A stretch of DNA of 19,942 bases from a virus (lineage: Duplodnaviria; Heunggongvirae; Uroviricota; Caudoviricetes): IMG/VR virus record IMGVR_UViG_2879748301_000007; one strand, 5' to 3'. Position 1 is the first letter of the stretch; each line of letters begins with the position of its first letter. Shown here one piece after another: positions 12,001-15,000 of the stretch. The position numbers were made by a program.

Positions 12001-15000
12001 CTGCGGCAGGGGGGCGGCGAATTGTCTCTGGTACCAGGCAAGGACTGGAACAATCAGCAGAATATCTATCACCGTTGGTTGAAAGGTGAAACGAAAGCGC
12101 AAAGGGAAAAAATTCAGAAACTGATCCCTGCGGTTCTGGCAATTCTTCCGCGTGAGCTGCGTCACCGACTCTGTATCTTCGATACCCTGGAACGCCGTGC
12201 ATTACTGGCGGCGCAGGAAGCGTTGAGTACGGCAATTGATGCGCATGATGATGCTGTCCAGGCCGTTTACCGGAAAGCACATTTCAGCGGTGGTGGGTCG
12301 CCCGGCGATTCTGTCGTAGTGCATTGATTGAAATTAATCGTGCCGGATTGTTTTGTTCGGTATCAGTTAAATGTAACGCTGCGAGCGTTACAAGGTGAAA
12401 ACAAATGGCTTCAAACTGGATAAAGCTCGAGGTTATTACGCCGGATAAGCCGGAAATATTCAGGCTTGCTGAGATTCTGAATATTGATCCAGATGCCGCA
12501 TTAGGGAAGGTTATTCGCTTCTGGGCATGGGCGGATCAACAAATGATAGACGGTAATGCAGATTGTAACGCTCGCGGCGTTACAAAAAGTGCAATAGATC
12601 GCATCACTTTTATGTCTGGTTTTGCTGATGCGTTAATTCAGGTTGGATGGCTGGTCGAAAATGACGGTGGGCTTTCTCTACCTAACTTTGAACGTCATAA
12701 CGGAAAAAGCTCTAAAAAACGGGCGGTTACAAACGAGCGAGTAACAAAAATACGCGAACTGAAACGAAAAGGTAACGCTGCCAGCGTTACACAAACGGAT
12801 CAAAAAGCGTTACCAGTGGAAGAGGAAGAGGAAGATCTAAATACTGATCTCCCCCTAAATCCCCCTCGCCAAAAACGAGCGTCTAAAAAATTCGAGCCGG
12901 AGGCTATTGAGCTGCCCGATTGGTTGCCGGAAACACTCTGGCATGAGTGGGTCCGGTTCAGACAGGCATTGCGAAAACCGATTCGAACGGAGCAGGGCGA
13001 TACGGGAACTGGAAAAATTCCGTCAGCAGGGTTTTACACCTGAGCAGGTGATTCGACACAGCATCGCCAATGAATACCAGGGCCTGTTCGCGCCGAAAGG
13101 TGTTCGGCCTGAGACGTTGCTCCGACAGGTTAACACCGTCTCGTTGCCGGACAGTGCGATCCCGCCAGGCTTCAGGGGGTAACGGACCATGAAAAATATT
13201 GCGACAGGCGGCGTTCTGGAACGCATCCGCCGACTGACCCCGCAACATGTAACCGCCCCATTCAGAACGGTAGCGGAGTGGCGCGAGTGGCAACTTGCTG
13301 AAGGCCAGAAACGTAGCGAGGAGATCAACCGCCTGAATCGCCAGTTGCGGGTGGAAAAAATTCTGAATCGCTCAGGCATCCAGCCGTTGCACCGTAAATG
13401 CTCGTTTGCGAATTACCAGGTGCAGAACGACGGCCAGCGATACGCGTTAAGCCAGGCGAAATCCATCGCCGATGAACTGATGACCGGGTGTACAAATTTT
13501 GCGTTCAGCGGAAAACCTGATACCGGGTAGAATCACTTAGCGGCAGCTATCGGGAATCGCCTGCTGAAAGACGGTCAGACAGTGATTGTGGTTACCGTGG
13601 CTGATGTTATGAGCGCCCTGCACGCCAGCTATGACGACGGGCAGTCAGGCGAAAAATTTTTGCGGGAGCTGTGCGAAGTGGATCTGCTGGTTCTTGATGA
13701 AATTGGCATTCAGCGCGAGACGAAAAACGAGCAGGTGGTGCTGCACCAGATTGTTGATCGCCGGACAGCGTCGATGCGCAGCGTGGGGATGCTGACAAAC
13801 CTGAACTATGAGGTGATGAAAACATTGCTCGGCGAGCGGGTGATGGATCGCATGGTCATGAACGGCGGGCGCTGGGTTAATTTTAACTGGGAGAGCTGGC
13901 GTCCGAATGTTAGCCATTCGAGGGTTGTTAAGTAGTTTCAGGAGGATTTATGGCGAAACCTTTTACTCCCGAACAGCGGGAAGAACTGAAGACGCGAATT
14001 GTGGAACTCGTGCATCAGGACGGTCGGGTCACGATTCGGCAGTTGTCCGATGAAACAGGTATCAGTCGTGCGTCTGTCGGTCGCTTATGCATAGAACTGG
14101 TCGCAAGTGGTGATGTATATAATTCTGGCTACGGCTTATTCCCGTCTGAACAGGCTCGCAAGGACTGGCAAAGCGCCCGCAAAAAACTCTCGAGAGTAAA
14201 GGTGAGGAAACCGGTTGTTGTTGATCCGGACCTTATCTGGTCATTACCTGACGGAGAAATACGCCGCTACGACAGGCGCCTGAATATAATCTGTCGCGAG
14301 TGCCGGAAGAGCGAAGCTATGCAGCGTGTACTGGCTTTCTATCAGGGTAATTTTCAGGAGGCGATACTGTGAATGAAATTAGCTATCAGGCTTCAATTAC
14401 CGCTGGCATTCGCATCAAAGGAGAGGAGCATGGAAATAAAACCAGAAGATGAGTTAAGCAATATCGTTTTATTTCCGATAAAAGAGGATGACCCTCGTAA
14501 TCAGGTTAATTTTCTTTATAAGCCATCGGAAAGACCATATTGCCATCACGCCTCTGTACGGGTTGACGAAAAAGAGCGTCAGGTCCGCTGTAAAATCTGC
14601 GGTGCGGTTGTGGAGCCGTTTGACTGGATGCTCTCTGTGGCAAAAAGAGAAACCAGACTGGCAGATGATGTAAGGCTATTGCGCCAGGAGGAACAGGAAA
14701 GGCGGAGAAATATAGAAAAGCTGATACAGATTGAGCGTAACGCGAAAGCGCGGATACGCAGGGCGACAAAATCCAGAACTGAATAATTAAATTTAGCACT
14801 GTTAAAAATTTAATCCTTAACCGGAGGGATTTCTGCACCCTCAAATCATCAGGAGACCGCCCGAAAGGGCGGGGAGCAGTCACACATCTGTTTCCGATAG
14901 CCCCGTTCTAATGCTACACTCTTTGATATTTTTATGACCTCAATAAACATATTTATGACAGTTGCTGATTTCAAACGGCCCAAATTGGAGCTCCCAAACG

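Follow-up and report, generated by a model that had tools for sequence, protein, structure and literature searches.

The window, the whole stretch of DNA analysed here, comprises 19,942 nt of the IMG/VR virus record IMGVR_UViG_2879748301_000007. The element that hosts the locus is a decayed Rac-like prophage of Shigella flexneri, which is lambdoid and of the ydaU/ydaV type. Two adjoining genes lie on the same strand in its early-operon accessory region, between the replication and lysis genes, where the preliminary description had placed them. ORF1 covers 13950–14372 (140 aa) and ORF2 covers 14373/14430–14786, depending on the start codon taken. The features are as follows.

13940–13945, + strand: Shine-Dalgarno sequence AGGAGG of ORF1, 4 nt ahead of the ATG (read from the sequence)
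13950–14372, + strand: ORF1, a DUF977/'LygF'/Ren-like protein of 140 aa (Pfam DUF977, phrog_142, hhalign against Ren)
13968–14141, + strand: predicted winged helix-turn-helix of ORF1, residues 7–64 (AlphaFold2, Foldseek, Pfam HTH_24/HTH_IclR)
14268–14345, + strand: C-terminal Ren signature of ORF1, residues 107–132, ...NIICRECRKSEAMQRVLAFYQ (BLASTP, hhalign)
14373–14401, + strand: stretch that joins the DUF977 module to the ORF2 cassette, with a non-conserved in-frame ATG at 14373 (homology breakpoints, context alignment)
14402–14429, + strand: 28-nt leader of ORF2 with its Shine-Dalgarno sequence (AAAGGAGAGGAG at 14417–14428), conserved in the contexts compared
14430–14786, + strand: ORF2, phrog_1621, predicted zinc ribbon and coiled coil, 118 aa (phrog_1621, PGAP start, homologues)
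14445–14477, + strand: acidic N-terminal short linear motif EDELSNIVLFP of ORF2, residues 6–16 (alignment)
14535–14615, + strand: predicted zinc ribbon of ORF2, residues 36–62 (invariant columns, model hairpins)
14541–14543, 14547–14549, 14589–14591 and 14598–14600, + strand: predicted zinc ligands C38, H40, C54 and C57
14616–14780, + strand: predicted single long helix of ORF2, residues 63–117 (heptad-like periodicity, invariant basic end)

ORF1 and ORF2 are both intact in the window, beside ydaU-like and ydaV-like pseudogenes. The dN/dS ratio is ~0.2 for ORF1 (7 alleles) and ~0.07 for ORF2 (48 alleles). Purifying selection acts on both, and both are real genes. Promoter and terminator scans of 13000–16200 gave nothing above shuffle expectation, and Rfam found no RNA in the ORF1/ORF2 region. 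A hairpin at 14858–14875 is unremarkable (fold z-score −1.9). The same prophage also carries hok/sok and a YdaT-family gene.

ORF1 is matched over its full length by the Pfam family DUF977 (PF06163; 1.1e-33, 116.5 bits against a cut-off of 22.1; residues 1–136 on profile positions 1–134 of 134). It is also matched by phrog_142, 'Ren-like exclusion protein' (2.7e-44), the same PHROG that matches lambda Ren (1.6e-41). An hhalign comparison of ORF1 with a Ren alignment gave 96% probability (E 3.8e-9), with the helix-turn-helix and the C-terminal motif both aligned. In the C-terminal signature, which is invariant across DUF977 alleles, 12 of 20 residues are identical to lambda Ren 73–92 (BLASTP E 3e-7). 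The preliminary description could assign no function to ORF1; the phrog_142 and hhalign matches give it confident homology to a known protein, an outcome which that description had named as its own refutation. The HTH-like segment reported there was confirmed. Pfam HTH_24 matches ORF1 at 7e-6, HTH_IclR also matches, and AlphaFold2 models residues 7–64 as a confident winged helix-turn-helix (pLDDT 88–94). The C-terminal half of the model is of low confidence. Foldseek, which had been proposed as a check on both proteins, placed the ORF1 model among generic GntR/IclR/MarR winged-helix folds and returned nothing more specific.

The good ribosome-binding site claimed for ORF1 is the AGGAGG at 13940–13945. 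The IstB/DnaC-like ydaV gene stops at 13935, directly 5' of ORF1, leaving a gap of 14 nt. A DUF1627 gene may sit between the loader and the DUF977 gene in intact relatives. ORF1 is 72–77% identical to phage LygF proteins, and its homologues in phage records are named LygF or Ren-like. The 'LygF' label, seen in Rac-SA53, mEp460, POCJ13, the 75/02 Stx phage and the Salmonella Enteritidis Sdr I region, is a locus label only. In the literature searched, DUF977 is mentioned in a single paper, which is unrelated. From these sequence relationships and the gene order, we are confident in placing ORF1 as a homologue and positional equivalent of lambda Ren, the third gene of a ydaU-ydaV-type replication module.

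ORF2 belongs to phrog_1621 (5.6e-56; residues 1–117 on profile positions 1–120 of 134), as does its homologue in a Klebsiella phage. The related PHROGs 8538, 4865 and 24073 are all annotated 'unknown function'. There are 148 close homologues. An exhaustive profile search with a threshold of E ≤ 1e-3 extended the superfamily to at least 1,575 clusters at 50% identity, and sub-alignment searches of viral contigs for remote members returned mostly Enterobacterales relatives. The superfamily has no Pfam family, and literature on it was not found. Common to its members are an N-terminal acidic peptide (NVVxFP), a zinc ribbon of the form C-x-H...C-x2-C and a coiled-coil helix of ~55 residues whose basic end is invariant.

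The metal-ligand cluster of ORF2 that had been described is present. Residues C38, H40, C54 and C57 are invariant in 38 homologues and invariant or nearly so in 29 superfamily sequences; the first knuckle is therefore C-x-H. R50 of the ribbon is also invariant. The model has β-hairpins at 43–46, 51–54 and 60–61. With four ligands on two β-hairpin knuckles, ORF2 fits a generic zinc-ribbon fold, and metal binding is predicted. The charged helical tail mentioned in the preliminary description corresponds to the long helix of residues 63–117 in the model, which ends in the invariant basic stretch LRxEExxRRxNIxKLIQIERNAKARIR. In the N-terminal motif, E6, L9, N11, F15 and P16 are invariant, and the superfamily core is N-[VI]-[VI]-x-F-P. 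This peptide is modelled with low confidence and is mostly unstructured. For ORF2, searches of PDB sequences, Pfam (29 superfamily members), NCBIfam and PADLOC gave only coiled-coil noise. No DNA- or RNA-binding family matched significantly, and fold searches returned nothing specific and no toxin-like fold.

The best Foldseek match of ORF2 was a TFIIB-type zinc ribbon (1pft, E 0.3). That fold (PF08271) likewise has four ligands with similar spacing. However, ORF2 scores 21.5 bits against PF08271 (Zn_Ribbon_TF), below the gathering cut-off of 29, and no more than 3 of the 29 superfamily members searched show even a weak match. ORF2 has C-x-H as its first knuckle where the TFIIB ribbon has C-x2-C/H. 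What comes after the ribbon also differs, a coiled coil in ORF2 and cyclin folds in TFIIB. The likeness is a generic fold resemblance only.

Outside Escherichia and Shigella, ORF2 has a consistent position. At 15 loci from other genera it occupies the late end of the nin region, and in most of a set of 14 such loci it shares an ATGA overlap with the upstream gene. The gene directly 3' is a Q-type antiterminator in 14 of 24 subfamily representatives, and these antiterminators belong to four different Pfam families. Upstream lies NinG in 6/24, RusA in 2/24 and YbcO in 1/24. The genes found ahead of ORF2 include Ead/Ea22, RseB-like, NinG, RusA, YbcO and others; it follows Ead/Ea22 in phage ArgO145 and NinG in a Klebsiella phage, and in Stx phages it lies in the exo-xis region. 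In E. coli and Shigella the cassette is remote from every Q gene, or even part of the pL operon. The last slot of the nin region, with NinG/RusA-type nucleases on one side and the Q antiterminator on the other, was probably the ancestral home of ORF2. Within E. coli and Shigella the cassette would then have been shuffled among early accessory hotspots, with one common landing place directly after DUF977.

An alternative is that ORF2 could be a small nucleic-acid-binding regulator of late genes, binding through its ribbon and basic helix, with Q, its mRNA or terminators of the nin region as targets. Adjacency to Q in 14 of the 24 subfamilies, despite four unrelated Q families, is consistent with this, as are the sub-threshold TFIIB-type ribbon match (Foldseek E 0.3) and the invariant arginine- and lysine-rich helix end. 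However, lambdoid gene order is conserved by module, and the adjacency by itself is therefore weak evidence. The E. coli and Shigella cassettes remote from Q, or in the pL operon, and the absence of a significant DNA- or RNA-binding family match also argue against it. We regard a role in late-gene regulation as unlikely.

Among complete E. coli genomes, ORF2 is present in 1,679, DUF977-like DNA in 3,617 and the junction of the two in 967, always with the same 57-nt spacer between the DUF977 gene and ORF2. ORF2 thus follows DUF977 in 58% of the E. coli genomes that carry it (967/1,679), and ~27% of those with DUF977-like DNA have the junction (967/3,617). At 80 IMG/VR loci, DUF977 is adjacent in 46, further upstream (≤3.2 kb) in 23 and absent in 9. 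No DUF977 gene was found within 4 kb at any of the 15 loci from other genera. The preliminary description had presented the two as a tightly coupled pair; by these counts they are not a conserved functional pair. ORF1 and ORF2 do not form an obligate two-gene system, as neither co-occurrence across lineages nor stop/start coupling was found. The distribution indicates that ORF2 is a separately mobile accessory cassette, which merely adjoins the DUF977 gene in many E. coli and Shigella prophages.

A co-functional module of the two proteins is also conceivable, for example a DNA-binding Ren-like protein and a zinc-ribbon partner that serve anti-defence or replication control together. Because the adjacency is frequent (58%) and both genes are intact beside the broken ydaU and ydaV, a functional link keeps some plausibility. 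It would also be in line with the constant spacer in the 967 E. coli genomes, the 46 adjacent IMG/VR loci and the 23 further loci at which DUF977 is still within 3.2 kb upstream. However, ORF2 occurs without DUF977 in all 15 of the other-genera loci and in the exo-xis region of Stx phages, and most DUF977 genes have no adjoining ORF2. The homology breakpoints mark two separate modules, the genes are not translationally coupled, and PADLOC gives neither protein a significant match (weak winged-helix matches for ORF1, none for ORF2). We judge such a module very unlikely.

The joint between the modules also defines the start of ORF2. Matches to DUF977 alone stop at ~14355–14377, and matches to ORF2 alone start at ~14401–14403, so that the breakpoints flank the ATG at 14373. 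When six different upstream contexts were aligned, homology started 28 nt 5' of 14430, as GCTGGCATTCGCATCAAAGGAGAGGAGC-ATG. This 28-nt leader, with minor variants, precedes the ORF2 start in the contexts tabulated. The codon equivalent to 14430 is ATG in 47 and GTG in 12 of the 59 distinct upstream contexts. PGAP calls a 118-aa product with the equivalent start, and the homologues from other genera all start M-x-TETE-x-ELSNVVxFP. The conserved sequence places the start at 14430; given the Shine-Dalgarno sequence in the leader, ORF2 therefore has its own ribosome-binding site and lies 57 nt after ORF1. Public annotations of the ORF2 protein comprise 118-, 132- and 137-aa versions.

The TGA-ATG from which tight coupling had been deduced does exist at 14370–14375, but its ATG is not a conserved start. 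Translation from 14373, giving a 137-aa protein coupled to the termination of ORF1, would fit the frame, which is open from there with an AGGAGG 11 nt upstream, and some database entries call such products. However, the 19-codon in-frame extension seen in the window occurs in only 5 of the 59 contexts and is absent from all other genera. The junction reads TGAGTG in 23 contexts and TGAATG in 5, and the strong conserved Shine-Dalgarno sequence stands ahead of 14430. A start at 14373 is highly improbable. With the true start at 14430, ORF1 and ORF2 are not translationally coupled.

An abortive-infection or toxin-antitoxin module, in which the HTH protein would be the antitoxin and its neighbour a small toxin, would suit two small adjoining genes of which the first has an HTH, in a prophage with hok/sok and a YdaT-family gene, but the NCBIfam toxin-antitoxin and PADLOC searches gave no significant match for either protein, the genes are distributed independently and ORF2 lacks a toxin-like fold, which leaves this reading scarcely credible.

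The locus is thus largely explained by a Ren-family gene adjoining an independent accessory cassette. On balance, it appears probable that these are two neighbouring yet independent early-operon genes, ORF1 the Ren equivalent of its module and ORF2 self-contained, with a mechanism that we can only infer. The corrected start of ORF2 and the module boundary may be useful in view of the differing public annotations. For the ORF2 family, we add here the breadth of the superfamily, the anatomy of its motifs and its usual genomic position. The clear three-part anatomy and the conserved position before Q make the family a tractable target, and this includes Stx phages, whose induction is affected by accessory genes of the early region.

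The N-terminal peptide of ORF2 resembles the N-terminal arm of E. coli UmuD. The stretches MEIKPEDELSNIVLFPIKED (ORF2) and MLFIKPADLREIVTFPLFSD (UmuD) are identical at 11 of 17 residues, a score that shuffles reach at a frequency of 1e-4 in a comparison picked post hoc. The family-invariant L9, V13, F15 and P16 coincide with UmuD residues. In contrast, there is no homology outside the peptide, the IKP part of the likeness belongs to the E. coli allele alone, and the wider superfamily retains only N-V-V-x-F-P. The UmuD arm reportedly carries a ClpX-tethering signal, and it also holds a β-clamp-binding motif. The clamp-motif-like pentamer of ORF2 has N at position 1, where Q is canonical (consensus QL[SD]LF or an LRVVK-like XB motif).

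We predict that ORF2 chains oligomerise through the coiled coil, probably as dimers, and that each would carry a CxH...CxxC ribbon and a flexible acidic NVVxFP peptide. The peptide may dock on a conserved host hub protein, and its resemblance to the UmuD arm makes the ClpX N-domain and the β sliding clamp the candidates. With its zinc ribbon and the invariant basic end of the helix, ORF2 could hold DNA, RNA or a second protein, and docking would then modulate an early lytic step. On this basis the superfamily could be an unrecognised class of temperate-phage adaptors, in which a UmuD-arm-like peptide docks a host hub (ClpX N-domain or β clamp) and the body recruits a second partner. We put this forward as a speculative proposal, with the odds well against it. 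If true, ORF2-type adaptors would redirect host proteolysis or replication in the early lytic phase.

Like ORF1, YdaW (b1361) of E. coli K-12 contains a winged-helix segment and is encoded 3' of ydaV, in its case in the Rac prophage. The two are of different families, and an identity of ORF1 with YdaW was rejected. The K-12 protein is a truncated member of DUF1627 that shares 58% identity with a DUF1627 gene from an O145 prophage (E 2e-61); its BLASTP match to ORF1 has an E-value of only 0.059. Because YdaW is of another family, the published retron-Sen2 'blocker' result for ydaW is not transferable to ORF1.

Lambda Ren (ren, NP_040633; PHROG 142) shares with ORF1 the N-terminal HTH and the C-terminal ECRxSxAMxRVLAxY. 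Both genes lie in the rightward early operon, lambda ren directly after P and ORF1 directly after the DnaC/IstB-like loader. ORF1 is longer (140 aa against 96 aa), with an insertion of ~40 residues between the two conserved parts, and lambda Ren is not scored as a member of Pfam DUF977. A preprint describes lambda O, P and ren as overlapping genes (bioRxiv 10.1101/2021.04.19.439022). ORF1 does not share this overlapping, co-translated arrangement, as it has a separate AGGAGG and a 14-nt gap. Phages lacking ren grow poorly on Rex+ lysogens, with suppressors mapping to O and P; two-hybrid assays showed interaction of Ren with both RexA and RexB, and initiator/helicase-loader modules are accompanied by Ren (bioRxiv 10.1101/2021.04.19.439022). 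The Rex-related phenotype attaches to lambda Ren and is only predicted for ORF1. By analogy, ORF1 would act with the initiator and the helicase loader, most likely keeping phage replication from triggering Rex-type abortive-infection systems. Ren accompanies O/P in lambda and ORF1 accompanies YdaU/YdaV (DnaC-like). The DUF977/LygF proteins are the Ren equivalents of YdaU/YdaV-type modules, extending the "third replication-module gene" beyond the O/P phages.

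Both reading frames noted in the preliminary description are present. ORF1 (13950-14372, +; 140 aa) has an AGGAGG ribosome-binding site 4 nt 5′ of its ATG, and dN/dS values of ~0.2 for ORF1 (7 alleles) and ~0.07 for ORF2 (14430-14786, +; 118 aa; 48 alleles) were obtained. Both are genuine coding genes. They had been described as a tightly coupled pair of unknown function; this observation was confirmed in part, and its interpretation is supported in part. ORF1 is from a known family (DUF977/Ren), ORF2 from a catalogued but uncharacterised one, and the tight coupling fails.

The window is a Rac-like lambdoid prophage in decay, riddled with IS elements. 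The region of the two genes is 99.7% identical to E. coli/Shigella-type chromosomes, and the exact ORF2 protein occurs in 978 contigs, recorded under Shigella flexneri as "putative bacteriophage protein". The rightward early operon region is ordered as follows:

11210-11617, minus strand: cI-like repressor
between the cI-like repressor and YdaT: cro-like gene
between the cro-like and YdaU-like genes: YdaT
12405-13182, plus strand: YdaU-like (DUF1376-type) replication gene
13189-13935, plus strand: YdaV-like DnaC/IstB helicase loader, directly before ORF1
14934-15620, plus strand: QueH homologue (epoxyqueuosine reductase; Pfam 2.6e-65), directly after ORF2
15678-16003, plus strand: complete hok/sok type I toxin-antitoxin locus (sok RNA, 117 bits; Hok/Gef ORF, hokD, 15791-16003)
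after sok/hokD: IS3-family element, the end of this order

The replication genes of this copy are dead. Small deletions near 12985-12995 shift the frame of the ydaU-like gene relative to its intact 260-aa counterpart in NZ_CP065615; the window copy also has 6 nt inserted in its glutamate run. The ydaV-like gene has become a pseudogene: where a 99.7%-identical relative has the Walker A motif GKPGTGK, it has GKPDTG-stop (G111D; K114 to a stop codon at 13528-13530). The QueH homologue may be a phage-borne function for 7-deazaguanine modification of tRNA or DNA.

Other remnants surround this region. An IpaH-type type III secretion effector (1-1812, +; LRR_TTSS and NEL E3 ubiquitin ligase domains), of the sort typical for Shigella chromosomal ipaH genes, lies at the prophage edge, and part of RecE (exonuclease VIII) is still present at 4175-4819. 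Rfam identifies C4 antisense RNA (75.7 bits) and isrK (61.5 bits) at 8390-8578 (−), adjoining a Rha/Ash-family gene (7781-8737, −); this makes an antirepressor immunity element of the P1/P7 type within the lambdoid remnant. Several IS3-family elements and an IS66-family transposase interrupt the prophage at 2675-3831 (+), 5675-6831 (−), 9132-10405 (+), 16250-17454 (+) and 17994-19595 (−).

ORF1 is a full-length member of Pfam DUF977 (116.5 bits; cut-off 22.1). Both ORF1 (2.7e-44) and lambda Ren (1.6e-41) match phrog_142, "Ren-like exclusion protein". Pairwise BLASTP aligns ORF1 and lambda Ren over the C-terminal 20 residues only (NIICRECRKSEAMQRVLAFY vs NLVFKECRQSAAMKRVLAVY). Profile-profile comparison of the DUF977 and Ren alignments gives 96% probability (E 3.8e-9), spanning the helix-turn-helix (residues 27-60) and a C-terminal motif (107-132); DUF977 differs from Ren by an insertion of ~40 residues. 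The HTH-like segment seen in the sequence is borne out by AlphaFold2, which places a confident winged helix at residues 7-64 and a helix at 67-82, with low confidence in the C-terminal half. Foldseek with ORF1 returned only generic winged-helix regulators. Homologues in phage records are named LygF, Ren-like exclusion protein or DUF977, LygF being a mere locus label originating from Salmonella Enteritidis.

The position of ORF1 is that of ren, after the helicase-loader gene, although a DUF1627 gene can intervene in intact relatives. Because of this homology and position, we read ORF1 as the Ren equivalent of the YdaU/YdaV module, its activity being inferred. Growth of heteroimmune ren− phages on Rex+ lysogens is poor, and suppressors of this defect lie in O and P; two-hybrid assays show Ren interacting with RexA and RexB, and initiator/helicase-loader modules are said to have Ren alongside (bioRxiv 10.1101/2021.04.19.439022). 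By analogy, ORF1 would most likely work with the replication proteins, as is thought for Ren, and would help replication to escape Rex-type exclusion. The E. coli DUF977 alleles (P0121-P0233) are near-invariant except in the predicted recognition helix (residues ~28-48), where at least three mosaic alleles occur (IRQLSDETGISRASVGRLCIEL, LRQLEAKTGATRYLMSVLAREL, LRALEAKTGASRYYISTLAREL), which suggests allele-specific targets.

K-12 ydaW also lies directly 3′ of ydaV. We rejected ORF1 as YdaW, since the two match at only E 0.059. YdaW is 58% identical (E 2e-61) to the DUF1627 gene of an O145 prophage (YdaW/DUF1627 loci compared: L262 (NC_000913), 3753-4313; L025, 1922-2692), and it is a truncated DUF1627 protein rather than a DUF977 protein. 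The retron-Sen2 toxin "blocker" role reported for YdaW is therefore not transferable to ORF1. At its N-terminus DUF1627 has a winged helix that weakly resembles the one in ORF1 (E 0.059), and DUF1627 and DUF977, consecutive genes in intact Rac-like phages, may be distant paralogues.

The supposed coupling rested on a TGA-ATG abutment, which is literally present at 14370-14375. Five lines of evidence show that ORF2 has its conserved start elsewhere, not at the ATG at 14373. PGAP predicts the 118-aa product from the equivalent of 14430. Homologues from other genera (Klebsiella, Kluyvera, Salmonella, Serratia, Yersinia, Erwinia and more) all start M-x-TETE-x-ELSNVVxFP, aligning with ORF2 MEIKPEDELSNIVLFP. 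E. coli matches to ORF2 alone begin at ~14401-14403, and those to DUF977 alone end at ~14355-14377. Six aligned contexts share a 28-nt leader (GCTGGCATTCGCATCAAAGGAGAGGAGC) and then the start codon, with unrelated sequence upstream; the leader, with minor variants, precedes ORF2 in the contexts tabulated. Of 59 distinct upstream contexts, 47 have ATG and 12 have GTG at the codon equivalent to 14430, and the 19-codon extension of the window type occurs in five. A spacer of 57 nt thus separates the genes, and ORF2 is served by a ribosome-binding site of its own.

ORF2 is an independent cassette. It lies 3′ of an Ead/Ea22 gene in the exo-xis region of the ArgO145 and Stx2a phages, and between NinG and YlcG/Q in a Klebsiella phage. 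At 14 loci from other genera it follows NinG, NinH, RusA, a DUF1364-like gene or HNH, mostly with an ATGA overlap, and a Q antiterminator lies 3′; no homologue of DUF977 or Ren lies within 4 kb at any of them. Of 24 subfamily representatives sharing no more than 85% identity, 14 have a Q-type antiterminator as the next large ORF 3′ (Phage_antiter_Q 6, Phage_antitermQ 5, Antiterm 1, DUF1133 2), and the upstream gene is NinG (6), RusA (2), YbcO (1), Ead/Ea22 (2) or others including methylases, HNH and Lar. Rac-like prophages of E. coli have several small genes in shuffled arrangement between DUF977 and hokD, ORF2 among them. DUF977-like DNA is found in 3,617 of 5,426 complete E. coli genomes, ORF2 in 1,679 and the DUF977-to-ORF2 junction in 967. 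At the 80 closest IMG/VR loci DUF977 is adjacent (46), 650-3,200 nt upstream (23) or absent (9), the upstream sequence being too short to judge in two. From these contexts and counts, the adjacency is an arrangement of two modules that is common in E. coli rather than a conserved pair. Shigella flexneri SFBU1023 and E. coli ECMA0423 each carry two junction copies (L005-L008) that differ downstream (QueH vs an HNH-like gene), so the junction moves as a unit among Shigella prophage remnants.

ORF2 matches phrog_1621 (unknown function) at 5.6e-56. Aligned with 38 homologues (44-94% identity), E6, L9, N11, F15, P16, C38, H40, R50, C54, C57 and F64 are invariant, and the C-terminal stretch LRxEExxRRxNIxKLIQIERNAKARIR is nearly so. 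The AlphaFold2 model (mean pLDDT 78) has an acidic N-terminus with little order, a small zinc ribbon whose hairpins lie at 43-61, and a single 55-residue helix (63-117) whose hydrophobic periodicity of 3.45-3.5 residues is coiled-coil-like; the Zn ribbon and charged helical tail first proposed for this protein thus hold. Apart from coiled-coil noise and a TFIIB-type zinc ribbon that scored below threshold, searches of Pfam, NCBIfam, PADLOC and solved structures gave nothing, and the protein goes by no database name other than "hypothetical protein" or "bacteriophage protein". With an exhaustive profile search, 1,575 clusters were recovered at E≤1e-3 (243 at E≤1e-10). Distant members, including GC-rich ones with C-terminal extensions, keep the plan: an acidic run then N-[VI]-[VI]-x-F-P; C-x-H...C-x2-C; DPFD; and L-[KR]-R-x-E-R-N-A-K-A-R-I. 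The remaining interest lies in this breadth and clean motif structure.

The anatomy suggests that ORF2 would form a coiled-coil oligomer, each chain bearing one zinc ribbon and a flexible docking peptide. The main alternative, a Q-linked nucleic-acid-binding regulator, is suggested by the gene position and the basic helix. The docking peptide resembles the N-terminal arm of UmuD, which carries a ClpX-tethering signal (reportedly described by Neher et al. in 2003) and a weak beta-clamp motif. In a post hoc comparison with the verified UmuD sequence, 11 of 17 residues are identical between the ORF2 peptide and this arm (MEIKPEDELSNIVLFPIKED vs MLFIKPADLREIVTFPLFSD), a score reached by 1e-4 of 20,000 shuffles. 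The likeness may be taken as a lead rather than a result, and N-V-V-x-F-P is the one part of it kept across the ORF2 superfamily.
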